A DNA stretch of 64,000 nt from an uncultured Acidobacteriota bacterium (GTDB lineage: Bacteria > Acidobacteriota > Thermoanaerobaculia > UBA5066), in NCBI GenBank assembly GCA_963776915.1, contig CAVZPE010000008.1:34124-98123 (forward strand). Reading direction: 5' to 3'. The position numbers and the translations under genes were made by a program. Under the pieces are notes generated by a model. That model saw only the letters and a program-made list of their open reading frames with translations. It was not told the DNA's origin and searched no databases. This document shows, one piece after another, positions 7-64,000 of this stretch (the stretch's first letter is position 1; the number at the start of each line of letters is the position of its first letter).

Positions 7-420
7 ATGCCCCCGCCCGCACCCACGGGGCTTCCCAAGGCACCGGCCGAGCCCGCCGCGCCGGCTCCGGCCGCTCCCGCGACGGCGGCGACACCCGTCC
101 CCACGGCGCCCCCGCCTCCCGCCCCGGGACCGAAGGGAAAGACCGTCGTCGGAGCGTCCCACCTGACGGTACGCGGGACGATCAAGTCGATCGACAAGGA
201 GTCCGTGACGTTCGTGGCGGCGAACGGGAGGGAACTCACCCTGAAGATCGCCGGGAAGGCCGTCGTGGCCGAGGGGCTCGCACCGGGTGACGCCGTCGTC
301 GTGCGCGTCCCGCTGCAGAAGCCGTTCGACGGGAAGACGGCCGACCGCGTCGAGCGCCCGAAGCCGTCGAAGGCTCCGCCCGCGTCGAAGTTCAGCGAGG
401 CCCAGTCCCCGAAGAACTGA
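7..420 (+). CDS. hypothetical protein, Pro/Ala-rich N-terminus; C-terminal domain shared with the next gene (possibly 5'-partial at window edge)
   Basis: ORF 7..420 is protein-like after a low-complexity PAPA stretch. Motif TLKIAGKAVVAEGLAPGDAVVV recurs in the downstream paralog. ATG lies 6 nt from the window start with no upstream stop. Confidence 0.5.
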   Translation: MPPPAPTGLPKAPAEPAAPAPAAPATAATPVPTAPPPPAPGPKGKTVVGASHLTVRGTIKSIDKESVTFVAANGRELTLKIAGKAVVAEGLAPGDAVVVRVPLQKPFDGKTADRVERPKPSKAPPASKFSEAQSPKN

Positions 421-1010
421 TGCGCGCCACGCCCGCCGTCTTCCTCCTCGCGCTCGCGGCGGGCGCCGCCGCGCGCGCCGGAGGGCAGCCCACCGCGGTC
501 CCGACGTCCGCCGGCGCGGGCGCCGTCGCGCCGTCGGACCAGACGGCCGTCAGGCCGGCGCTCCCCGACCAGCGCGCGAACCGGACGGTCGAGCTCGGGT
601 CGGCGTCCCCGACGCCCGCGCCGCTCCCGGTCGCCGCTCCGACGCCGACGCCGACCGCGGCCGCGCCGCCGGCCGCCGTCGAGGAGCCCGGCCGTTCCGA
701 GCCGGACACGGGCACGTCGCCCGCGGCGGCAGGGAGCGTGCACCGCAAGCCCGGCGTCGCGGGGCGGCCCGTGAGCGTCGCGCGGGCGCTGCCGTACACG
801 GTCGTCGCCTTCGAGCCCGGCAGGAGCCTCACGCTTCGCCGCCCCGAGGGGACGACCGTCGCGTTCACCCTGGCGAAGAAGGCCGAGGTGCCGAAGGGCC
901 TCGCGCCCGGGCAGACCGTCACGATCCGCACGCGGACCGTGCACGGGAAAAGAGTCGTCACGCGCGTGCAGCGGGCGGGCGAGACTCCGGTCCTGACGAA
1001 CGTCAACTGA
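420..1010 (+). CDS. hypothetical secreted protein, paralog of upstream ORF
   Basis: ORF 420..1010 has a signal-peptide-like N-terminus (AVFLLALAAGAAARA) and a C-terminal region similar to gene 1 (FTLAKKAEVPKGLAPGQTVTIRT). Its ATG overlaps the upstream stop (TGATG). Confidence 0.55.
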   Translation: MRATPAVFLLALAAGAAARAGGQPTAVPTSAGAGAVAPSDQTAVRPALPDQRANRTVELGSASPTPAPLPVAAPTPTPTAAAPPAAVEEPGRSEPDTGTSPAAAGSVHRKPGVAGRPVSVARALPYTVVAFEPGRSLTLRRPEGTTVAFTLAKKAEVPKGLAPGQTVTIRTRTVHGKRVVTRVQRAGETPVLTNVN

Positions 1011-1074: not shown

Positions 1075-1809
1075 ATGTTCGAGCCCGCGCCCGCGCCCCG
1101 CCGCCGACCCATGTTCGCCGTCTCCGCCGCGGCGCACGCGGCGCTCGCGGCCGCGCTCGTCGTCCCGCCGCTCTTCGCGACGCAGGAGCCGCCGGAGCCG
1201 GACGGGTTCGTCCACATCGCACACCTGCCGCCCCTCGCGAGCGACGCCCCGATTCAGGAGACGGTGGTTTTTCTTAGAAAGGGTAATGAGGGAGGGGCGC
1301 CGGCGCCGAAATCCCGCGCGACGGATGCCCGCCCCGCCGCGAAACCACCAATCACGCAGCCGACGAGCTTCACGGAGGTGCTGCCGCCCGCCACTGGCGA
1401 TCAGCCCTCTTCACCCTTCGATGAAGCCGACGAGCGAAGCGAGTCGGGTATTCCCTCCGGAGGCGGTCGCGGCGGCGGAGCCGCAGGAGACGATGGTCCC
1501 GGCTGCGAGGGATGCAATGCGATCTCCGCGACCGCCCGCGGCGTCACGCCGCCGGTGGCGATCGAGACGATCGCGCCCGCGTACCCCGAGCTCGCGCGGC
1601 GCGCGCACGTCGAGGGCGCGGTGCTGCTCGAGGCGATCATCGGCCCGGACGGCAACGTCCGCGACGTGCGGGTCCTCCGCAGCGCGCACCCGCTCCTCGA
1701 CCCGGCGGCGCTCGAGGCGGTCCGCCACTGGCGCTACCGTGCCGCGCGCATCGGCGACAGGCCGGTCGCGGTCTACCTGAGCGTCGTCATCACGTTTTCG
1801 CTGCGCTGA
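1075..1809 (+). CDS. tonB: energy transducer TonB
   Basis: N-terminal TM helix, Pro-rich linker, and a C-terminal TonB_C domain (AYPELARRAHVEGAVLLEAIIGPDGNVRDVRVLRSAHPLLDPAALEAVRHWRY). Confidence 0.75.
   Translation: MFEPAPAPRRRPMFAVSAAAHAALAAALVVPPLFATQEPPEPDGFVHIAHLPPLASDAPIQETVVFLRKGNEGGAPAPKSRATDARPAAKPPITQPTSFTEVLPPATGDQPSSPFDEADERSESGIPSGGGRGGGAAGDDGPGCEGCNAISATARGVTPPVAIETIAPAYPELARRAHVEGAVLLEAIIGPDGNVRDVRVLRSAHPLLDPAALEAVRHWRYRAARIGDRPVAVYLSVVITFSLR
1268..1428 (+). repeat. AT-richer palindromic element copy E1 (TTCTTAGAAAGGGTAATGAGGGAGG ... CCCTCTTCACCCTTCGATGAAG) embedded in the tonB linker coding region
   Basis: Left arm at 1271-1295 and right arm at 1405-1426 are mutual reverse-complement-like. 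Both arms are low-GC against a 72% GC background. The same arms are seen at 52.6, 59.0 and 63.8 kb. Confidence 0.45.
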
Positions 1810-5013: not shown

Positions 5014-5059
5014 TGCAGCCGCCGATAGATGAAAAATCTGCGGCCGTTCGGCCGGTGTC

Positions 5060-5105
5060 AAGGGTCTGCGACCGCTACGCGGCGCGCGCAGCGCGCCCTT
5101 GACTC
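5060..5105. terminator. stem-loop between convergent rluA-like and TonB-dependent receptor genes
   Basis: Inverted repeat GTCAAGGGTCTGCG ... CGCAGCGCGCCCTTGAC around 5062-5103, in the gap between convergent genes. Confidence 0.35.
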
Positions 5106-5132
5106 CGGCCGGACGGCGCGTATCCCCTCTTC

Positions 5133-8084
5133 CTAAAAAATTACCTTCGCGGCCAGCTGCACGATCCGCGCGCCGGCGGAGACGGTCGGGGAGCCGTACG
5201 CGGCGACGGGCGTCAGGGTCTGCCCCGAGACGGCCCAGTACGACTGCGTGACGCCGACGACGTTCGAACGGTTCAGGATGTTGAAGGCCTCGGCGATGAG
5301 CTGGAGGTTGACCGGCCCGATCGGGATGTCCTTCGTGATGCGCGGGTCCCACGACATGAACATCGGGTAGGTCTGGCTGTTGCGCGCGAAGCCCGGCGCG
5401 ATGTCGTTGCGGTTGTTGCCGTCGTTGTTGATGTCGGTGAGCGGGGCCAGGGTCGGCGTGTACGGCTGCCCGCTCGCGATCGTGAGGATGCCCGAGAGCG
5501 ACCAGCCGCCGAGGACCGCCTGCTGCCAGCCGCCGGCGTTCCGGAAGTACGGCATGCTCCAGTAGGCGGAGATCACGAGGCGGTGGCGCTGGTCCGCGTC
5601 GCCGACGGCGCGGTCCACGTTGAAGTTGCGCGGGTCGGAGGCGAACTTCCCGTCGTCGCCGCTGGCCGGGACGACGGCGGTCGCGTCCGGCTTCGTGTCG
5701 ATGACCTTCCCGTACGTGTAGGCGACGCGCATCTGCCAGTTGTGCGAGAAGCGCTTGTTGACCTCGAGCGTCGCGCCGTTGTACTCGGAGTCGGCCGTGC
5801 TCTGGAACTGGATGACGCGCCCGAAGTTCGCGAACGGCCGGTCGGCGCCGTACCGCACGACCGTGTACGTCCTGCCGGTCGAATCCGTGTACGTCGTCGT
5901 GCCGGGGGAGCCCACGTTGATGTCCGTCGAGCGCTGCAGGTGCGTGCCCTTCGCGTAGAGGTACGAGAGCGCGAGGGAGATGTCGGGCGTCAGGGCGTGC
6001 TCGATTCCGATGGACGCCTGGTGGACGAGCGGATTCTGGAAGCTCGGGTCGAACGTGAAGATCGTCGGCTTCGGAAGGACGACGCCGGTCGGGATCGACG
6101 GCAGGATGGTCGGGTACGTCGGGATCTGCGCGCCGGTGAACGTCAGCGTCTGGACGTTGATGCCGTTGTTCGACATCGCGGTCCCGATCATGATCGACGG
6201 CGTTCTTCCGTAGAACATTCCGTAGCCGCCGCGGACGACCGTCTTGTCCTGGCCCTTCGGCGACCACGCGAAGCCCGCGCGGAGCGCGAAGTTGTTGTCG
6301 TCCTCGGGGATGACGGACGTGTCGATCCCGGCCGCGAGGAGCTGCGCGTCGGGGTTCCTCACGGTCGGCTGGGCGATGCCCTGCTTGTCGTAACGGACGC
6401 CGAGGTTCAGCGTGAGGCTCGGGTTCGGCCGCCACTCGTCCTGGAGGAAGAAGGCGATCTCGGAGAGGTCGGGGTTCGTGTACGGGCCGCTCGTTCCGGG
6501 CCCGGGGAACGCCTGCACGTACCTCGACGCGATCCCGAGGTTGTAGTTCGCGACGGAGTTGAACGTGTAGCTGCCGGAGAAGTTGCCCGGGAACCAGTTC
6601 AGGATGAGGTCGCGGCTCCAGTCGAAGCCCGCCTTCAGGGAGTGGTTCCCGAAGAGGAACGTCGCGGCGTCCCCGACCTGGTAGCGCGTGATCGTCGTCT
6701 CGCGCGGGCTGAAGAAGTTCCGGCCGATCGTGAAGGCGAACGAGCCCTGCTGGATGAAGGCCTCCGGGTCCGCGCTGTTCGCGAGGCCGGGCTCGGAGTC
6801 CTTCGCGTACTGGCCGCGCAGCTCGTTGAACAGCGTGGGCGTGAACGTGTTCGTGACCGAGGCCGTCAGCGTGTCGGTGTTCACGAGCGAGTCGCCCGAG
6901 TGCTGGACGGACTGCGTCGGGCCGCCGTTCTCGTTGTTGACGCCCGTGAAGCGCTGGCGGTTGTAGCGCATCGAGACCTGGGCGTTCTCGGAGGCGTTCC
7001 AGTCGCCCTTGAGGAGGAAGACGTCCTGGTTCTGGCCCCGGTCGTACGGGGAGGTCAGGGGCTGGAGCTTCGCGAGGCCGGCCGCGGTGTTCGGGTCCGA
7101 GAGGTTCAGGCCGGACGTGTTCAGGATGACGGCCTGGCCGTTCGTGTTGCGCTGGCCGTCGTAGTTCGCGAAGAAGAAGAGGCGGTCCCTCACGATCGGG
7201 CCGCCGAGGCTCGCGCCGAACTGGTTGTAGTGGTAGTTGCTGATCGGGCGGCCGTTGATCACGTTGATGTAGTCGTTCGCGTTCAGCCCCTTGTCGCGGT
7301 AGAACTCGAACGCCGTGCCGTGGAACTCGTTCGTGCCGGACTTCGTGACGACGTTGATGACGGCGCCGCCCGCGCGGCCGTACTCGGCGGAGTAGGCGTT
7401 GCGGTTGACCTGGAACTCCTTGACGGCGTCCTGGCTGAACTGGTACGGCGCGCGGCCCGAGCCCGTGCGGCCGAGGGCCTGGCCGAAGAACGTGTTGTCG
7501 TTGTTCGCGCCGTCGATCACGATGCTGTTGAGCGTGCCGCGCTGGCCGGCGAAGCTGATGTCGCCGAGGCGCGGGTCCTTCGTGACGCCCGGCGTCGTGA
7601 GGACGAAGTCGATGAAGTTGCGGCCGTTCGTCGGAAGGTTCTGGATGTACTTCTCGTTGACGGCCGAGCCCTGCTCCGTCTTCGTCGTCTCGACGACCGG
7701 CGTCTCCTCGGTGACCGTCACGGTGGACTTGACGCCCGCGAGCGCCATCGCGAGCCGGAAGCCCGTGTCGGCTCCGACGGTGACGTCGGCCTTGCCGACG
7801 TTCGAGGGCGTGAAGCCCTGCAGGGTCGCCGAGACCTCGTAGAGGCCGACGGGAACGAGCGGGAACAGGAAGGCGCCGCTCACGTTCGTCGTCGCGTTCC
7901 GGACCGCGCCCGTCTTCACGTTCTTCGCGGTCACGGTCGCGCCGGGAAGCGGAGCGCCGCCCGTGTCGGAGACCGTGCCGGAGATGGTGCCGGTCGCGCT
8001 CTGCGCGAGCGCGGGGCCGGCGGGGGCGACGCACAGGAGAAGCGCCGCCACGAGAGCGATCGAGACTCGTTTCATTCGGACCAT
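5133..8084 (-). CDS. TonB-dependent receptor with N-terminal carboxypeptidase-regulatory-like domain
   Basis: 983 aa. Signal peptide, then GTISGTVSD..GAPLPGATVT (CarboxypepD_reg), a plug domain (NGRNFIDFVLTTPGV), a long beta-barrel, and a C-terminal aromatic residue F. GGAGGAGG RBS upstream. Confidence 0.8.
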   Translation of the reverse strand: MVRMKRVSIALVAALLLCVAPAGPALAQSATGTISGTVSDTGGAPLPGATVTAKNVKTGAVRNATTNVSGAFLFPLVPVGLYEVSATLQGFTPSNVGKADVTVGADTGFRLAMALAGVKSTVTVTEETPVVETTKTEQGSAVNEKYIQNLPTNGRNFIDFVLTTPGVTKDPRLGDISFAGQRGTLNSIVIDGANNDNTFFGQALGRTGSGRAPYQFSQDAVKEFQVNRNAYSAEYGRAGGAVINVVTKSGTNEFHGTAFEFYRDKGLNANDYINVINGRPISNYHYNQFGASLGGPIVRDRLFFFANYDGQRNTNGQAVILNTSGLNLSDPNTAAGLAKLQPLTSPYDRGQNQDVFLLKGDWNASENAQVSMRYNRQRFTGVNNENGGPTQSVQHSGDSLVNTDTLTASVTNTFTPTLFNELRGQYAKDSEPGLANSADPEAFIQQGSFAFTIGRNFFSPRETTITRYQVGDAATFLFGNHSLKAGFDWSRDLILNWFPGNFSGSYTFNSVANYNLGIASRYVQAFPGPGTSGPYTNPDLSEIAFFLQDEWRPNPSLTLNLGVRYDKQGIAQPTVRNPDAQLLAAGIDTSVIPEDDNNFALRAGFAWSPKGQDKTVVRGGYGMFYGRTPSIMIGTAMSNNGINVQTLTFTGAQIPTYPTILPSIPTGVVLPKPTIFTFDPSFQNPLVHQASIGIEHALTPDISLALSYLYAKGTHLQRSTDINVGSPGTTTYTDSTGRTYTVVRYGADRPFANFGRVIQFQSTADSEYNGATLEVNKRFSHNWQMRVAYTYGKVIDTKPDATAVVPASGDDGKFASDPRNFNVDRAVGDADQRHRLVISAYWSMPYFRNAGGWQQAVLGGWSLSGILTIASGQPYTPTLAPLTDINNDGNNRNDIAPGFARNSQTYPMFMSWDPRITKDIPIGPVNLQLIAEAFNILNRSNVVGVTQSYWAVSGQTLTPVAAYGSPTVSAGARIVQLAAKVIF

Positions 8085-25495: not shown

Positions 25496-26623
25496 TCAGC
25501 CGGCGGCCGGAGCCTGCGACGTCGGGCGGGCCGCGGCCTTCGTGCGCTTCTCGAGGAGGCCCTTGAACTGGTCCTTGTCGAGCGACTTCTCGAAGGCCTC
25601 CTCGGCGTCCACGGTGCCCGCGACGACGAGGTCCGCGAGGCTCTGGTCCATCCCGATCATCCCGGACGTGCGGCCCGTCTGGATGAGGGTGTTGATCATC
25701 GCCGTCTTGCCCTCGCGGATGTTGTTCGAGAGGGCGGACGACCCCCTCAGGACCTCGAACGCCGCGGCGCGGCCGCCGCCCTTCTTCTTGAGGAGCACCT
25801 GCGCGACGACGCCCTTGAGCACCTCGGCGAGCACCGTGCGCACCTGCTCCTGCTCCTCGGCCGGGAAGCTGTCGATGAGCCGGTCGACGGCCTTCGCGGC
25901 GGAGTTCGTGTGGAGGGTGCCGAAGACGAGGAGCCCGGTTTCGGCGGCCTGGAGCGCCATCGACATCGTGTCGAGGTCCCGGAGCTCGCCGACGAGGACG
26001 ACGTCGGGGTCCTCGCGGAGGGCCGCCTTGAGGGCGCCGGCGAACGTCGGCGTGTCGAAGCCGAGCTCGCGGTGGGAGATGACGGACTTCTGCGGCCGGT
26101 GGAGGAACTCGACGGGGTCCTCGATCGTGATGATGTGGGACGCCCGCGTCCGGTTGATCCAGTCGAGGAGCGCCGCGAGCGTCGTCGACTTGCCCGAGCC
26201 CGTGGGTCCCGTCACGAGGACGAGCCCGCGCGTGATGCGCGCGACGTTCGCGACGAGCGCGGGCAGCCCGAGCTCCTCGATCGCGAGGACGCGCGGCGGG
26301 ATCATGCGGAGGACGGCCCCGGAGCCGTGCTCCTGCCGGAAGAGGTTCACGCGGAAGCGCGCGATGTCGCCCATCGCGTACGCGAAGTCCGTGTCGCCCG
26401 TCGCCCGCCATTCGCGGAGCGGCTTCTCCGGCGCGATCGGAACGACGAGGCTCTCGTACTCCTCCTCCGTGAGCGTGCGCCACTTGAGGCGCTCGAGGTC
26501 TCCGTCCACGCGGATCATGGGCGGCGAGCCGACGGCGAGGTGGAGGTCCGACGCCTTCTTGTCGACCATGACCCTCAGGAGCTTGTCGACGCGGTTGACG
26601 CCCGGCTGGATGGAGGACTTCAT
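25496..26623 (-). CDS. pilT: twitching motility ATPase PilT
   Basis: ASDLHL, GPTGSGKSTT (Walker A), DPVEF, PilT signature. 375 aa. ATG overlaps the upstream stop (ATGA). Confidence 0.85.
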   Translation of the reverse strand: MKSSIQPGVNRVDKLLRVMVDKKASDLHLAVGSPPMIRVDGDLERLKWRTLTEEEYESLVVPIAPEKPLREWRATGDTDFAYAMGDIARFRVNLFRQEHGSGAVLRMIPPRVLAIEELGLPALVANVARITRGLVLVTGPTGSGKSTTLAALLDWINRTRASHIITIEDPVEFLHRPQKSVISHRELGFDTPTFAGALKAALREDPDVVLVGELRDLDTMSMALQAAETGLLVFGTLHTNSAAKAVDRLIDSFPAEEQEQVRTVLAEVLKGVVAQVLLKKKGGGRAAAFEVLRGSSALSNNIREGKTAMINTLIQTGRTSGMIGMDQSLADLVVAGTVDAEEAFEKSLDKDQFKGLLEKRTKAAARPTSQAPAAG

Positions 26624-27732
26624 TCGAGCGCCTGCCTCTCCTCGGCGAGGAGCTTCTCGAACGGCTCCTTCTTGACGGCCTTCTCCATCGCGAGCTCCGG
26701 GTCCACCTTGCCCTCCTCGCAGAGCTTCATGAGGGACTGGTCCATCGTGCACATGCCCGCGAGCTGGCCGGTCTGGAGCGCGGACGGGATCTGGTGCGTC
26801 TTGCCCTCGCGGATGAGCGCGGCGACCGCCGGCGTCGACCGGAGGATCTCGAACGCGGCGACGCGCCCGGCGAAGCCGCGCCGCGGGAGGAGCGCCTGCG
26901 AGAGCACGGCCTTCAGCGAGTCCGCGAGCATGACGCGGATCTGGCCCTGCTGGCCGGGCGGGAACGAGCTGATGACGCGGTCCACGGTGGAGGGCGCGTT
27001 CGTCGTGTGGAGCGTCCCGAGGACGAGGTGGCCCGTCTCGGAGGCCGTGATCGCGAGCGAGATCGTCTCGAGGTCGCGCATCTCGCCGACGAGGATGACG
27101 TCGGGGTCCTCGCGCAGGGCGGCCTTCAGGGCGCGCGCGAAGGAGGCGGTGTGGTGCGGCACCTGCCGCTGGTTCACGAGCGCCTCCTTGTTCAGGTGGA
27201 CGAACTCGACGGGGTCCTCGACCGTGATGATGTGGCAGGGCCGCGTCTCGTTGATGCGGTCGATGAGGGCCGCGAGGGTCGTGGACTTGCCGCAGCCCGA
27301 GGGCCCCGTCACGAGCACGAGGCCCTGCGTGAGCTTCAGGATGTCCGCGACCGTCGCCGGCGGGAGGCCGATCTCCTCGATCGTCGGAATCGTCTTCGGG
27401 ACGACGCGGAAGCAGGCGTCGAAGCCCCCGCGCTGCGAGAAGAAGTTCGCGCGGAAGCGTCCGAGGCCGGGCAGCTTGAGGCAGACGTCGATCTGGCGCT
27501 CGCGCTCGAGCCTCTTCCAGTCGTCCTCCGGCAGGACCTCGCGGATGAGCTGGGAGGCGCGGGCCCGCGTCATGACCGGCGCGTCGACGACCTCGAGGAG
27601 GCCCTGCATGCGCCGGTGCGGGATGAAGCCCGTCGCGAGGTGGAGGTCCGAGGCGCCGCGCTTGACCGTGTCCGCGAGGTACTCGACGAGGCGCGCCGAG
27701 TCGTTTCCCGCGAGCTCGACCGTCTGGACCTC
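26620..27732 (-). CDS. pilU: PilT/PilU-like retraction ATPase; no start codon in frame, N-terminus apparently continuous with the upstream HEAT-repeat ORF after a 1-nt shift
   Basis: GASDLHL, GPSGCGKSTT, HIITVEDPVEF. The ORF track starts at M 27609, but PilT-like homology (EVQTVELAGNDSARLVEYLADTVKRGASDLHLATGFIPHRR) continues upstream to about 27732 with no ATG/GTG/TTG. Confidence 0.7.
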   Translation of the reverse strand, partial: EVQTVELAGNDSARLVEYLADTVKRGASDLHLATGFIPHRRMQGLLEVVDAPVMTRARASQLIREVLPEDDWKRLERERQIDVCLKLPGLGRFRANFFSQRGGFDACFRVVPKTIPTIEEIGLPPATVADILKLTQGLVLVTGPSGCGKSTTLAALIDRINETRPCHIITVEDPVEFVHLNKEALVNQRQVPHHTASFARALKAALREDPDVILVGEMRDLETISLAITASETGHLVLGTLHTTNAPSTVDRVISSFPPGQQGQIRVMLADSLKAVLSQALLPRRGFAGRVAAFEILRSTPAVAALIREGKTHQIPSALQTGQLAGMCTMDQSLMKLCEEGKVDPELAMEKAVKKEPFEKLLAEERQALE

Positions 27733-29369: not shown

Positions 29370-30119
29370 ATGGTGATGAGCGTTCCGAAGGCTGTCCGGC
29401 GCTTCCGCCTCCGCGTCCATCCGGTCCGCGGCGGGCGCGGCTTCTCGCTCGTCGAGCTCCTCGTCGTGATCGCGATCCTCGCGATCGTCTTCATCGTCGG
29501 GGGGATGCAGGTCACGAAGGCGTGGCAGCGCCAGAAGCTCCAGAGCGCGTCGGCGGACATCAAGATCCTCATGCAGCGCGCGCTGCCCGAGATGCAGCGC
29601 CGCGGGATGGCGACCTTCGTCCGGGTCGGGCCTCTCGTGACCGCCGGCGCCGTCCGTTACCTTCCGATCTACCTCATCGGCGACGCGAACGCGAACGGCG
29701 CGGTCGACGCCTTCGCGAACCCGCCGACGGTGGCGGCTCCGGACCTCCTGATCGACGAGTACGACATCATGGTGGTCGGCCAGACCGGCGTGAAGGGCAC
29801 GACGGGCGTGACGCAGGAATTCTGCCTGTCCGACGCGGACATCACGCAGATCCAGTCGACCCTCTGGTCGGACAACACGACGAACTGGACCAACGGGCGC
29901 ACCCTCATGTGCGACTTCCAGGGCCGGGCGATCGACATCGCGAGCGGCCTGCAGATCGCCGGGCCCGCCACGCTCGTCCTGACGCACGTGAACATGGTGG
30001 TCGGCGACCTCCTGCCGCGCACGCGCTACGTCCTCAGCATCAACCCCGTCTGGAGCGTCCGGATCCGGAAACAGGTCCAGGACGCCACGAGCACCTGGGT
30101 GGACCAGTCCGGTGGGTGA
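29370..30119 (+). CDS. minor pilin / pseudopilin (FimT/FimU/GspH-like), prepilin N-terminal domain
   Basis: Leader ...GGRG then FSLVELLVVIAILAIVFIV. 249 aa, intact. Confidence 0.7.
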   Translation: MVMSVPKAVRRFRLRVHPVRGGRGFSLVELLVVIAILAIVFIVGGMQVTKAWQRQKLQSASADIKILMQRALPEMQRRGMATFVRVGPLVTAGAVRYLPIYLIGDANANGAVDAFANPPTVAAPDLLIDEYDIMVVGQTGVKGTTGVTQEFCLSDADITQIQSTLWSDNTTNWTNGRTLMCDFQGRAIDIASGLQIAGPATLVLTHVNMVVGDLLPRTRYVLSINPVWSVRIRKQVQDATSTWVDQSGG

Positions 30120-32638: not shown

Positions 32639-37816
<5,178 letters not shown>

Positions 37817-49216: not shown

Positions 49217-49262
49217 CCCTCTTGACCCTTTCGTGCAGAAGATCTTCATCTGTCGGTGCTTC
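49217..49262 (+). repeat. solo half-copy of the palindromic element family plus perfect palindrome GAAGATCTTC in the accC leader
   Basis: CCCTCTTGACCCTTTCGTGCAGAAGATCTTCAT resembles the right arms at 1405, 52654 and 63824. It lies 25 nt upstream of the accC ATG. Confidence 0.35.
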
Positions 49263-52530: not shown

Positions 52531-52712
52531 CGGAAGAGAGAACGGAAGAAGAGACGGATTGGAAGACAATAGAAGAGGAAGATTTTCCTAGAAGGGTGTG
52601 TGGGGCCGTGGCAGTTCGCTTCGGCGGCACATCCCCGCGGCGCCGGCGCCTTCCCCTCTTCACCTTCTAAGAAAACCCTTTCTTCTCTCTCTTTCTCTCT
52701 CTCTTCTCTCTC
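52531..52712. repeat. palindromic element copy E2 filling the convergent intergenic gap: arms TTTTCCTAGAAGGGTG / CACCTTCTAAGAAAA flanked by a long homopurine tract (left) and homopyrimidine tract (right)
   Basis: Left arm 52584-52600, right arm 52654-52676. GA-rich tract 52531-52583 mirrors the CT-rich tract 52677-52710. The region is markedly AT-richer than its surroundings. Confidence 0.55.
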
Positions 52713-52715
52713 GCC

Positions 52716-54653
52716 CTAATTCTTGAAGGGCACCTCGACGGCGAGCCAGGTCTTCACCTTCACGCCGTTCTTCGTCGCGGGCTTCCAGCGCCACTGCTGG
52801 AGCGCCTGGACGCTCGAGGCCCCGAGGCCGACGACCGGGGTCACGTCCCTCAGGAGCTCGACCTTGGCCGGCTTGCCGTTCTCGTCGATGAGGACGCGCA
52901 GGAGGACGGTGCCCGAGACCCGCCTCTGCCTCGCCATCGGCGGAACGAGGGGGCTGACCTGACGCGTCGGGACCGGCGGCGTGTCGCAGTTCTCGATGTC
53001 GACGAAGTCTCCTTCCTTCACGGCGGGCGCGGTCGGCACGGCGGCGGCCGCCGCCTGGGCCTCCTCGCGCCGCTTCGCGGCGCCCGCGCGGGCGAGACGC
53101 GCGGCCTCCTCGCGGTCGGCCCGGTCGCGCGCGAGGCGCGCCGCGTCCTCGACGTCGCGGGCCTTGTGCGCCTCCTCGGCGGCCGCTTCGATGTCGGCCT
53201 GTTTCTTCTTCGAGGCGGCGTCCTGCTGCCGGGCGGTTCGCGCCTCCTGTTTCCGGAGCTCCTCGTCGAGCCGCTTCTGGACGGCCGCCTGGAAGAGAGG
53301 GTCGTCCTTGCCGACGACGACGGGCGCGGGCGTCGGGACCGGCGTCGGCGGCGCCGCGGTCGGCCGGGGCAGGGGCGTCGGCGCCGGGGCCCGGGCGGGA
53401 GCCGAGGGCCTCAGCGCGAAGTAGGCGCCCGCCGCGAGGACCGCGGCGCCGCCGAGCGCGACGGCCCAGACCGGCACGCCGCCCATCGGCTTCTTCGGCG
53501 GTCCGGTCATCATCCTCACGGGCGCCGTGCCCTTCGCGGGCGCGGGCCGGGCGGGCGGCGGAGGCACGACCGGCTGGCGGCGCGAGCCCGTGGTCGAGTC
53601 CGCCTTGCGGCCGGGCCCCGTCGCGTCGGGCTTCGCTTCCCCGCCGCTCGCCTCGACACGCCGTCGCCCGGTCGTCTCGGCGCCGGATCGGGCGGCCGCG
53701 AGCGCCGCGGGGTCGAGCGCCTCCTCGGCGTCCATCTCCGCCCTCTCGCGCTGGATCGCGCGATCGAAGTTCTTCTGGAGGAAGAACGCGAGGTTGAAGG
53801 TCGAGGGGGCGTACGGGCCCCCGTAGAGGAGGGCCGAGAGGTCGCGCCGGTATCCGGCGACGCTGCGGTCGCGCGTCTCCGGGTCGGGGTGGAGCGCGCG
53901 GCGCAGGAGGCGCCGGATGTCCTCGGGGACGGGCGTCCCGTCGATCGCGAGGGTCGACGTCTCGACCGCCTCGAGGGCGACGCCCGGGAGAGGAGGCTTG
54001 CCGGTGAGCATCTCGAAGAGGATGGCGCCGACGCCGTAGATGTCGCCGGGCGTCCCCGGCTTGCCGGAGGCCAGCACCTCCGGGGCGACGTAGGGCGCGA
54101 AGGCCTGCCGTGCGCGCGGCGAGGCGAGCGAGGGCAGGAGTCCGGCTCCGAGGCCGTACCCGAACACGCGGGCCTCGCCCTCGTTCGACACGGAGACGAA
54201 CGCCGGGACGAGGAACCCGTGCGGGGCGCCCGTGTAGCGCTCGACGGCGGCTCCGGACTCGAGAGCGGTCATCAGGCGCTCGGCGATCAGGAGGCCGTGC
54301 TCGGCGGGCATCGCCGCTCCGAGGAGACGCGCCGCGAGGAGGACGTCGAGCGTGCGGCCCTCGACGTACTCGACCGCGAGGAACGGCGTGTCGTCGATGA
54401 CGCCGAGGACCGTGCCGCGCGCCACCGCGGGGCCCCTGGTCTCGTCGACGAGGGCGACGGCCGTCTCCATCGCGGCCAGGAGCGCCGTCCGGTCGACGGC
54501 CGCCGACGTGAAGGTCCGGACGAGGTGGAAAGGCTGCAATCGCGGGGCTCCCGCCGTGCCGCCGCGCCACACCTCGCCGAGCGGGTCGCTCCCGATCGCG
54601 CGCGTGAGGATGTACGGCCCGAAGGGCCGCGGGCTGGCTGCGGATGCGCTCAT
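52716..54653 (-). CDS. Ser/Thr pseudokinase domain - TM helix - TonB C-terminal domain fusion protein
   Basis: N-terminal kinase-like fold with an APE motif but no GxGxxG, HRD or DFG. TM helix VPVWAVALGGAAVLAAGAYFAL. Pro-rich region and charged coil. C-terminal TonB_C (VSGTVLLRVLIDENGKPAKVELLRD...QWRWKPATKNGVKVKTWLAVEVPF). 645 aa, intact. Confidence 0.65.
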   Translation of the reverse strand: MSASAASPRPFGPYILTRAIGSDPLGEVWRGGTAGAPRLQPFHLVRTFTSAAVDRTALLAAMETAVALVDETRGPAVARGTVLGVIDDTPFLAVEYVEGRTLDVLLAARLLGAAMPAEHGLLIAERLMTALESGAAVERYTGAPHGFLVPAFVSVSNEGEARVFGYGLGAGLLPSLASPRARQAFAPYVAPEVLASGKPGTPGDIYGVGAILFEMLTGKPPLPGVALEAVETSTLAIDGTPVPEDIRRLLRRALHPDPETRDRSVAGYRRDLSALLYGGPYAPSTFNLAFFLQKNFDRAIQRERAEMDAEEALDPAALAAARSGAETTGRRRVEASGGEAKPDATGPGRKADSTTGSRRQPVVPPPPARPAPAKGTAPVRMMTGPPKKPMGGVPVWAVALGGAAVLAAGAYFALRPSAPARAPAPTPLPRPTAAPPTPVPTPAPVVVGKDDPLFQAAVQKRLDEELRKQEARTARQQDAASKKKQADIEAAAEEAHKARDVEDAARLARDRADREEAARLARAGAAKRREEAQAAAAAVPTAPAVKEGDFVDIENCDTPPVPTRQVSPLVPPMARQRRVSGTVLLRVLIDENGKPAKVELLRDVTPVVGLGASSVQALQQWRWKPATKNGVKVKTWLAVEVPFKN

Positions 54654-58974: not shown

Positions 58975-59034
58975 CTGGAAATTTCTTAGAGGGTGAAGAT
59001 GGCTCTGCCGCCCGTTTACCCTTCTAAGAAATCG
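58975..59034 (+). repeat. compact palindromic element copy E3 (TTCTTAGAGGGTGAAG ... ACCCTTCTAAGAA) straddling the annotated lptD start
   Basis: Arms at 58984-58999 and 59018-59030 can pair as a stem of about 13 bp around a 20-nt loop. A TTG at about 59054 would give the signal peptide MRRRLPFWLILAV. Confidence 0.45.
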
Positions 59035-62733: not shown

Positions 62734-63591
62734 GTGCAGACGGTGATCCTCGGAGCCGGCGGCATGCTGGGCCGCGCCCTCGGGCGCGAGTTCCCGGCGG
62801 CCGAGCGGTTCACGCACGCCGCCCTCGACATCACGGATGTCCCGGCGGTTCATGCCGCGCTCCAGCCGGGCGTGCGACTCGTCCTGAACGCCGCGGCCGA
62901 CACGCGCGTGGACGCGGCCGAAACCGATCCCCGGCACACCCGCGTGAACCACGTCGCCGTCGGGCTCCTCGCGGCCCGCTGCAGCGAGATCGGCGCGACG
63001 CTCGTCCACGTCTCGACGGACTACGTCTTCAGCGGAAAGGCGATCCGCCCCTACCGCGAGGACGACCCCGTCGACCCGGTGAACGCCTACGGCCGCGGCA
63101 AGCTCGCGGGGGAGCGCCGCGCCTTCGAGGAAGGCGACGAAGTCCTCGTCGTCCGCACGTCCTGGGTCTTCGGGACGGGGGGCGCGAACTTCGTGGACAC
63201 GATCCTCAAGCGCGTCGAGGCCGGCGGGCGCGAGCTCTCGGTCGTGAACGACCAGGTCGGGCGGCCGACGTTCGCCGGAGACCTCGCCGCCGCGGTCCGC
63301 GCGCTCGTCGAGCGGCGCGTGACCGGCATCGTCCACTTCGCGAACGCCGGCGACGCGACCTGGTACGAGGTGGCGCGCGAGGCCCTGCGGCTCTCGGGGC
63401 GCACGGACGTCGCGCTCAGGCCGGTCACGACGGGGGACTTTCCGCGGCCGGCGCGCCGGCCGCGGCACTCGGTCCTCGACACGGCGCTCTACGAGCGGCT
63501 CACGAAGACGGCGCCGCGGCCCTGGAGCGAGGCCCTCGCGGCCTACCTCGAGGAGAGGCGCGCGGTCGTCTCGCCGGGCCCGTTCGCATGA
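62734..63591 (+). CDS. rmlD: dTDP-4-dehydrorhamnose reductase
   Basis: Rossmann GxxGxxG (ILGAGGMLG), YxxxK region (NAYGRGKLAGE), RmlD_sub_bind-like. Confidence 0.75.
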   Translation: MQTVILGAGGMLGRALGREFPAAERFTHAALDITDVPAVHAALQPGVRLVLNAAADTRVDAAETDPRHTRVNHVAVGLLAARCSEIGATLVHVSTDYVFSGKAIRPYREDDPVDPVNAYGRGKLAGERRAFEEGDEVLVVRTSWVFGTGGANFVDTILKRVEAGGRELSVVNDQVGRPTFAGDLAAAVRALVERRVTGIVHFANAGDATWYEVAREALRLSGRTDVALRPVTTGDFPRPARRPRHSVLDTALYERLTKTAPRPWSEALAAYLEERRAVVSPGPFA

Positions 63592-64000
63592 CGCCGCTGC
63601 CACGCGAGGAGATCCTCCGCAAGGCGGTGCACGTCGGGATGGCGGGGTTCGCGCTCCTCCTGCGGACGCTGACGTGGCAGCAGGCGGCGGCCGCGGCGGG
63701 GGTCGCCCTCGCCTTCAATGCGGCGATCTTCCCGCGGGTTTCGCCGCATGTTCTTAGAAAGGAAGAGAGGGCGGCTCGCTTCTCCCTCGGGATCACGCTT
63801 TATGCGGCCACCGTGCTTCTGCTCATCTTCACCTTTCGAAGAAATCTCCCTCTCGCCGCCGCCGGATGGGGCTACCTGGCATTTGGGGACGGGTTCGCGA
63901 CCCTCGTCGGGATGACCGTGGGGGGGGCGCGTCTGCCCTGGAACCCGAAGAAGTCCTTCTCCGGCTTCCTCGGCTATCTCGTCTTCGGTTTCCTCGGCGC
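63588..64000 (+). CDS. integral membrane protein, 3'-partial at window end (possibly CTP-dependent lipid kinase/cytidylyltransferase-like)
   Basis: The ATG overlaps the rmlD stop. Hydrophobic helices; KKSFSGFLGYLVFGFLG at the window end. It contains element copy E4. Confidence 0.4.
   Translation, partial: MTPLPREEILRKAVHVGMAGFALLLRTLTWQQAAAAAGVALAFNAAIFPRVSPHVLRKEERAARFSLGITLYAATVLLLIFTFRRNLPLAAAGWGYLAFGDGFATLVGMTVGGARLPWNPKKSFSGFLGYLVFGFLG
63749..63858 (+). repeat. palindromic element copy E4 (TTCTTAGAAAGGAAGAGAGGGCGG ... CATCTTCACCTTTCGAAGAAATCTCCCTCTCGCC) embedded in-frame in the final membrane-protein CDS
   Basis: Left arm 63751-63774, right arm 63824-63858. It encodes ...HVLRKEERAARFSLGITLYAATVLLLIFTFRRNLP... 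inside the ORF. Confidence 0.45.

Follow-up and report, generated by a model that had tools for sequence, protein, structure and literature searches.

Rickettsia palindromic elements (RPEs) are described, in the part of PMC10969869 that treats them (citing Ogata 2000 and 2002), as units of ~150 bp with a conserved encoded peptide, found as in-frame fusions in genomic open reading frames (ORFs). Uptake sequences, in the sections of PMC2817400 that count them, amount to 1,471 (Haemophilus) and 1,892 (Neisseria) per genome; in-place, position-stable copies are described there in coding regions and terminators, and preferred codons are said to be favoured. Template switching, according to the portion of PMC8794818 that bears on it, can write in one event a reverse-complement copy over nearby sequence, leaving the length unchanged and creating or repairing a stem around native sequence. 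Here, we analysed a stretch of 64,000 nt from an uncultured Acidobacteriota bacterium of the Thermoanaerobaculia (contig CAVZPE010000008.1, hereafter the window), in which a palindromic repeat, named E1, lies in the linker region of a tonB-family gene. The original prediction had read E1 as an element inserted into the tonB coding sequence in the manner of RPEs. Comparison with orthologues points to another reading, which we hold with slightly better than even confidence: the tonB arm pair would be an ancient, positionally fixed pair of motifs operating at the nucleic acid level and superimposed on the coding sequence, with no peptide-adding insertion.

The gene and the repeat within it are made up of the following features.

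1075..1809, + strand: tonB-family coding sequence (CDS) from the ORF list, 244 aa, with an N-terminal hydrophobic transmembrane (TM) helix, a Pro/Ala-rich linker and a TonB_C domain.
1270..1292, + strand: E1 left arm, TTTCTTAGAAAGGGTAATGAGGG, profile score 18.9 bits, kept as DNA in orthologues.
1293..1404, + strand: E1 inter-arm stretch, linker coding sequence native to tonB (APAPKSR...TQPTSFTEVLPPATGD) and not carried by the element.
1405..1426, - strand: E1 right arm, CCCTCTTCACCCTTCGATGAAG on the + strand, reverse complement CTTCATCGAAGGGTGAAGAGGG, profile score 16.1 bits.

Pfam TonB_C was matched at residues 167-243 of the window TonB (E = 1.7e-17). The two arms are mutually inverted, with 17 of 21 positions able to pair, and the distance between their outer ends is 156 nt, a multiple of 3, which is a property that the original prediction had proposed to check. 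Both lie inside the tonB ORF and are translated as it had stated: VVFLRKGNEGG (codons 64-74) and QPSSPFDEAD (codons 110-119) match the ORF list and the translation exactly. Within these linker peptides, the left arm is read F L R K G N E, with the very rare codons TTT CTT AGA .. GGT AAT, and the right arm gives P S S P F D E on the + strand. The arms are AT-rich islands in a gene of 73% GC (the window has 72.6%), and the stretch between them is GC-rich with normal codon usage. At one place the right arm carries TTCGAAGAA where the family consensus has TTCTAAGAA; this change removes an in-frame TAA stop, results in an A·G mismatch between the arms, and is kept in all orthologues. Upstream of tonB (window 7-1010) are two small Pro/Ala-rich ORFs, 7-420 and 420-1010, without Pfam match. 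Similar-sized ORFs without Pfam match are found at the same place in syntenic relatives, the gene calls of L091 being fragmented.

The original prediction had also proposed to check whether 35-55 element-encoded aa are missing from orthologues, and they are not. The segment spanning codons 60-124 has a length of 195 nt in both the window and six of the arm-bearing orthologues, of 192 nt in L090, and again of 195 nt in the armless outgroup L092, which is syntenic with rluA. The spacing of the anchor motifs (I..T.V, RP..V.QPT.I...LPP and FEE) does not differ between in-group and outgroup. Between the E1 arms, P96, L103 and P104 show little or no variation across the 26 TonBs that were aligned, among them outgroups, and QP...LP is conserved in all; since this conservation of inter-arm residues extends to outgroups, the interior of E1 is native linker.

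Another copy, E4, lies inside a different gene.

63750..63844, no strand assigned: E4 arm pair (arms 63750-63771 and 63823-63844), located in a CDS (63588 to beyond the window end) for a dolichol-kinase-like membrane protein.

As had been predicted, E4 is translated, both of its arms being contained in the ORF that starts at 63588. An alignment of the encoded protein with 20 homologues, which go as low as 41% identity and include an annotated dolichol kinase, showed no insertion at the arms. These overlie or enclose the invariant R57, G68, Y72 and V76 and the near-invariant F83. Conservation of the left arm extends to L094 and L095. The armless orthologue L093 is one codon longer than the window, not shorter, and has CTC TTC CGC GAC GAC GAC CGG where the window has CTT AGA AAG GAA GAG AGG at E4. 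No arm was detected in 11.8 kb of L093 or in 16 kb of L092 by Hamming-distance and profile scans, which also served for the census of the whole family. The reading frame of the right arm in tonB is not the one used in E4. From these alignments, the arms replace pre-existing codons (~7 per arm in tonB) and add no peptide module. An armless tonB of equal length, together with an E4 free of insertion, is the outcome that the original prediction itself had named as a refutation of insertion. With both arms present in orthologues, the same 195 nt in the armless L092 and a native interior, an RPE-like insertion into tonB is not supported by the sequences compared.

More than 90 TonB orthologues were retrieved by protein search, several of them labelled Thermoanaerobaculia. 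The full-length ones are mostly 234-253 aa long, with 240-253 aa in the in-group and 234-244 aa in outgroups. Orthologues at ~53-80% identity share VVFLRKGNGGG (or SLRRVREGG) and (E/S)(L/S)PFEE.GERSEP, and more distant TonBs (40-48% identity) have the same overall length without the arm-encoded motifs. At the DNA level, the tonB set comprised nine arm-clade orthologues and the armless outgroup L092. Both arms are present in 8 sequences of the codon alignment (the window, L001, L087, L083, L084, L089, L090 and L091); outside the arms, the amino-acid identity of the arm-bearing orthologues is 59-80%. With few changes, these sequences share the left-arm codons TTT CTT AGA AAG GGT AAT and the right-arm codons TCT TCA or GAA TTA, followed by CCC TTC GAA GAA. 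In L090 the left arm is TCT CTT AGA AGG GTA AGA GAG GGC, where -1 and +1 shifts seven bases apart have turned FLRKGNEG into SLRRVREG; TCTCTTAGAAGGGTAAGAGAGGG is kept despite this double frameshift. The SLRRVREG variant marks a whole subclade (P0041, P0044, P0048, P0062 and P0065). Because the frameshift alters the peptide but spares the DNA, it is the DNA, not the peptide, that is conserved.

The synonymous positions were compared within tonB. GC content at third codon positions (GC3) is 0.43-0.51 in the arms vs 0.87 in the rest of the gene, and the pairwise identity of synonymous codons reaches 0.84 in the arms vs 0.70 elsewhere in tonB (permutation p = 0.015). Where orthologues have the same residue as the window, its AT-ending codons are still AT-ending in 38 of 45 cases in the arms and in 32 of 92 elsewhere (Fisher p = 2.8e-8). 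Four-fold sites outside the arms are 58-72% identical, for a composition-based floor of 39%. As to the codons themselves, those of the arms account for 0-4% of their synonymous families in the genes of the window (TTT 2.4%, CTT 3.6%, AGA 1.6%, GGT 3.1%, TCT 1.7%, TCA 0% and TTA 0%), except AAT (9.5%) and GAA (11%). Because rare AT-ending codons persist against a strong GC3 bias, and because the DNA survives a frameshift, the arms are constrained at the nucleotide level.

That E1 is a genuine copy of a palindromic repeat family in the TonB linker, as the original prediction held, was confirmed by family scans against controls and by its in-frame position. Alignment of 32 arms, from the window and related loci, gives the consensus WTTTCTTAGAAGGGTGAATGGGG, in which the outer TTTCTTAGAA and GG..GAA are the best-conserved positions. 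The window holds four inverted arm pairs (E1-E4), that is 8 arms in 64 kb, always paired. For the 12-mer TTCTTAGAAAGG, 6 matches were found with ≤2 mismatches vs 0.43 expected, and for the paired pattern 1 match vs 0.00 expected. A scan with the 21-23-mer consensus (≤4 mismatches) returned 16 matches in 206 kb of the arm-bearing clade and 0 in 1.35 Mb of loci from other, distant Acidobacteriota, which were the negative control for the arm scans. In profile searches the arms score 12-24 bits and the top control score is 11.1 bits. A chance origin of the arm matches is excluded by these control scans, and the family was found, across the loci scanned, only in one subclade of Thermoanaerobaculia. 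An Rfam covariance-model scan gave no match at the gathering score, and none of the copies is overlapped by a match at E values up to 5. Sequences between the arms are unrelated among family members and range in length from ~8-11 nt (E3) to 112 nt (tonB), for copy sizes of 49 to 157 nt; the arms alone define the family.

Apart from E1 and E4, the family is represented in the window as follows.

5020..5140, no strand assigned: degenerate remnant (…GATGAAAAATCTGCGG, CCCCTCTTCCTAAAAAA) downstream of rluA, at a site occupied in relatives by a short hairpin copy.
52584..52674, no strand assigned: E2 arm pair (arms 52584-52605 and 52654-52674), between convergent genes.
58982..59031, no strand assigned: E3, a tight hairpin (arms 58982-59002 and 59010-59031) that encloses a probable ribosome-binding site and the lptD ATG (58999).

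The right arm of E2 matches the 21-mer consensus with 0 mismatches. The pair is flanked by a GA-rich tract of ~50 nt on its 5' side (52532-52583) and a CT-rich tract of ~40 nt on its 3' side (52675-52716), so that the whole intergenic region forms a purine/pyrimidine inverted repeat of ~185 nt (52532-52716). E2 stands just beyond the 3' end of a gene at 52716-54653 (- strand) whose product combines a Ser/Thr protein kinase domain with a C-terminal TonB_C (Pfam Pkinase, TonB_C). At E3, the left arm supplies AGAGGGTGAAG-ATG, i.e. the probable ribosome-binding site and the start codon of lptD, and the right arm falls in lptD codons 6-12, where it is read Y P S K K, PSKK being kept in LptD orthologues. 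Downstream of rluA, the window has at 5040-5110 an unrelated GC-rich inverted repeat (GCCGTTCGGCCGGTGTCAAGGG ... CCCTTGACTCCGGCCGGACGGC), at the place where relatives have a 49-nt copy of the arm family. A solo 'arm' at 49217-49239, CCCTCTTGACCCTTTCGTGCAGA, upstream of a biotin-carboxylase-like gene, is right-arm-like and reaches a profile score of only 4.9 bits; it is probably not a member and was left uncounted.

We then looked at the position of the copies across relatives. Every arm in ~140 kb of their DNA is at an orthologous site (tonB, downstream of rluA, the lptD 5' end, or E4), E2 being left out of this comparison as it lies outside the retrieved loci. No lineage-specific copy was found in these ~140 kb, where presence/absence differences are accounted for only by deletion. 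The 49-nt hairpin downstream of rluA is present in L001, L087, L088, L089 and L090, with remnants only in L091 and the window. In L095, the most distant in-group genome, the lptD copy has kept both arms, with a loop of 56 nt vs ~8-11 nt in E3. No consistent flanking direct repeat or target-site duplication (TSD) was seen at any of 8 copies. The sequences come from metagenome-assembled genomes, among which the L091/L095 assembly has fragmented gene calls, and a metagenome scan yielded 4 loci. Concerning folding, the E3 hairpin has a predicted RNA fold of -25.8 kcal/mol (z = -4.7), and the short-loop copies downstream of rluA also fold stably (z = -6.4 in L090 and -3.7 in L088).

The arms are thereby established as members of the family that are ancient in the clade, add no residues and are constrained as nucleotides. 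We propose that each arm is a sequence-specific recognition unit at the nucleic acid level (DNA or RNA), a function that we infer from this conservation. Pairs with a short loop would form a very stable hairpin. At lptD, where the hairpin encloses the start codon and the likely ribosome-binding site, the most likely activity would be translational or mRNA-stability control, and occlusion of translation initiation would be the natural reading. In tonB, the distance between the arms is too great for them to dominate the predicted fold, and they would probably be individual sites for a protein or RNA partner. As for their origin, the tonB and E4 arms most likely arose in place over accommodating codons, by substitution or short templated conversion, and not by transposition; template switching between the arms could write the second from the first.

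Several observations weigh against such a superimposed motif pair. The comparison rests, for each of the two genes, on one armless outgroup available as DNA, and ~270 kb of clade DNA were covered. The TonB linker is of low complexity, which makes its alignment soft, and the equal length of the tonB segment could also mean that selection stabilises the length of the linker. The tonB arms do not pair with each other in the predicted minimum-energy fold (z = -1.2), and E4 has z = -0.6. The tonB arm-arm helix, with 76% of positions paired in eight orthologues, covaries no more than shuffled columns do. The idea that such a helix is selected in tonB mRNA was therefore rejected, on both the lack of covariation above shuffles and the unpaired arms; as the long-range helix finds no support, it seems to be the sequence of each individual arm that is kept. 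A 123-nt in-frame deletion has removed the left arm from the nearest relative (L088/P0031), whose right arm and remaining gene are intact, so the arm pair must be dispensable in at least one lineage. Finally, an in-place origin of a 22-nt motif would call for a driving process, and the function of the arms at the nucleic acid level is itself deduced from sequence. The L088 deletion (L088 10086-10135, corresponding to window 1184-1310) removes 41 codons and lies between short GC-rich repeats.

Other explanations can be weighed on the same evidence. An RPE- or MITE-like (miniature inverted-repeat transposable element) insertion into the tonB of the clade ancestor, either of an element or of two short arm units, might have been domesticated later, with compensating linker deletions restoring the length, and the same would have happened in E4. 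The arms are unmistakably akin to the intergenic hairpin copies and stand out by their AT content from a gene of 73% GC. A run of Gly codons in the outgroup linker (GGC GGC GGC GGG) is prone to slippage and could shrink, and the length of TonB linkers may be under stabilising selection. However, E4 overlies the invariant R57 and the near-invariant F83 of a compact membrane protein that has no extra residues, the interior is native in both genes, and the anchor-to-anchor spacing is equal in in-group and outgroup. Interiors of ~8 to 112 nt that are unrelated to each other, the lack of TSDs, and presence/absence polymorphism by deletion only also go against insertion, however ancient, and we regard it as unlikely: conceivable in the low-complexity linker of TonB, it does not suit E4. 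The motif might instead build up in place by molecular drive, through biased uptake like that of uptake signal sequences and DNA uptake sequences (USS/DUS) or through biased conversion, and be tolerated in permissive proteins without any cis function. This would suit arms that sit on pre-existing positions with unchanged length and keep their positions across relatives. It would also suit the intergenic copies, which are short-loop hairpins at E2 (convergent genes), downstream of rluA (beside a convergent gene) and at E3 (5' end), and the right arm of E4, which is nearer the consensus in the window than in its orthologues. Yet the density is low, at ~one arm per 8 kb in the window, when uptake sequences occur at about one per 1.2 kb in the genomes of Haemophilus and Neisseria. 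In addition, the two copies in coding sequence are inverted pairs with a spacing of 50-110 nt, an arrangement not expected from uptake bias, and the arms use the rarest codons, so that we find drive alone improbable.

Explanations at the level of the protein or of single codons fare much worse. Selection could act to keep the FLRKGN and PFEE peptides, or a rare-codon pause ~35-40 codons past the TM helix, the likeness to the repeat being incidental. The peptides are indeed conserved in many orthologues, and the three coding-associated copies are all near the N-termini of envelope proteins. But the frameshift of the L090 subclade changes the peptide and keeps the DNA, the right arms of tonB and E4 are in different frames, a rare-codon pause needs no 22-nt consensus common to intergenic hairpins, and a chance match is excluded by the controls; this possibility is very improbable. 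Still further down, we would attach hardly any weight to an intragenic inverton, in which the arms would be recombination sites and a flip of the segment would recode TonB or switch it off. Although inverted repeats do bracket a 156-nt in-frame segment, inversion in silico brings in at least one stop codon in 8 of 8 orthologues, family members with 8-11-nt loops are unable to invert, and no recombinase gene was noticed nearby, in a window that was not searched for one. Mimicry of Shine-Dalgarno (SD)/anti-SD pairing was rejected as well. Purines predominate in the left arms, and the right arms bear a loose resemblance to the 3' tail of 16S rRNA; duplex energies, calculated with the canonical anti-SD tail rather than that of the clade's own 16S, place the arms only among the top 3-20% of window 30-mers.

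Returning to motifs superimposed on coding sequence, they lend themselves to a wider and far more tentative proposal, which we think rather unlikely to hold as a whole. A 22-nt sequence-specific signal of the Thermoanaerobaculia subclade may have been written over existing DNA, conserved codons included, by templated conversion or drive and not by transposition. It may then have been kept by selection as a cis element for an envelope regulon, either post-transcriptional or DNA-binding, comprising tonB, lptD, the dolichol-kinase-like gene, and genes beside outer-membrane barrel and TonB_C proteins. If this were true, we would be dealing with a dispersed 'repeat family' whose members do not go back to a common mobile element. 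Palindromic repeats found in frame within genes tend to be taken as tolerated selfish insertions, and the comparison of tonB and E4 points the opposite way, with arms placed on codons that were there before and kept as DNA against strong GC pressure, even where the peptide changes. One genome alone is insufficient for an RPE-style reading. Should the situation be general in the clade, membership of a 'repeat family' need not imply transposition, and there would be a defined 22-nt cis signal inside envelope-biogenesis genes of an uncultivated acidobacterial lineage.

Three further repeated regions of the window deserve mention. An array of ~1.1 kb with 6-, 12- and 18-nt periods (ACGCCGAC...) occupies positions 32850-33950, and its + frame at 32945-33862 reads as a long linker of Thr-Pro repeats. 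At 14916-16066, two pseudopilin-like genes in tandem (N-terminal KGFTLIE) have blocks in common with 74-87% identity, and a weaker third copy is near 29435. A 300-nt direct repeat of 77% identity (25906-26205 and 27003-27302, spacing 1097 nt) probably corresponds to adjacent paralogous genes.

How does the arm family compare with known systems? The likeness to RPEs that the original prediction proposed holds in part: a repeated palindrome is placed in frame in unrelated CDSs, is translated, falls in a permissive region of the protein, and has copies common to related species. The remainder of the likeness did not stand, as only the ~22-nt arms are shared here, what lies between them is native to the host and varies in length, and no residues are added; there is neither a shared interior or conserved peptide, nor a peptide absent from element-free orthologues. 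With MITEs, the family has in common terminal inverted repeats (22-nt arms, at four loci), but it differs from them by the lack of TSDs at the 8 copies and by the lack of uniform size, shared interior and presence/absence polymorphism. USS/DUS are similar in that the motif sits on existing codons and leaves protein length unchanged, that some copies are intergenic inverted pairs by the 3' ends of genes, and that positions are stable, to judge from the part of PMC2817400 concerned with these features. They differ in their high density (~one per kb), which is not reached here, and the coding copies of the arm family are always paired and made of rare codons. Template switching fits arms that flank native coding sequence, and would account for a second arm matching the first, but not for one 22-nt consensus at unlinked loci. 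Closest in form are the repetitive extragenic palindromic sequences and their paired arrangement (REP/REPIN). The family departs from these in location, since E1 and E4 are intragenic and E3 overlaps the lptD start codon, and from REP/REPIN as from MITEs in having no TSDs, shared interior, uniform size or lineage-specific copies. What it shares with REP/REPIN is short arms in inverted pairs able to form hairpins, a dispersed and lineage-specific distribution, and intergenic copies that lie between convergent genes, beside the 3' end of a convergent gene, or at a 5' end.

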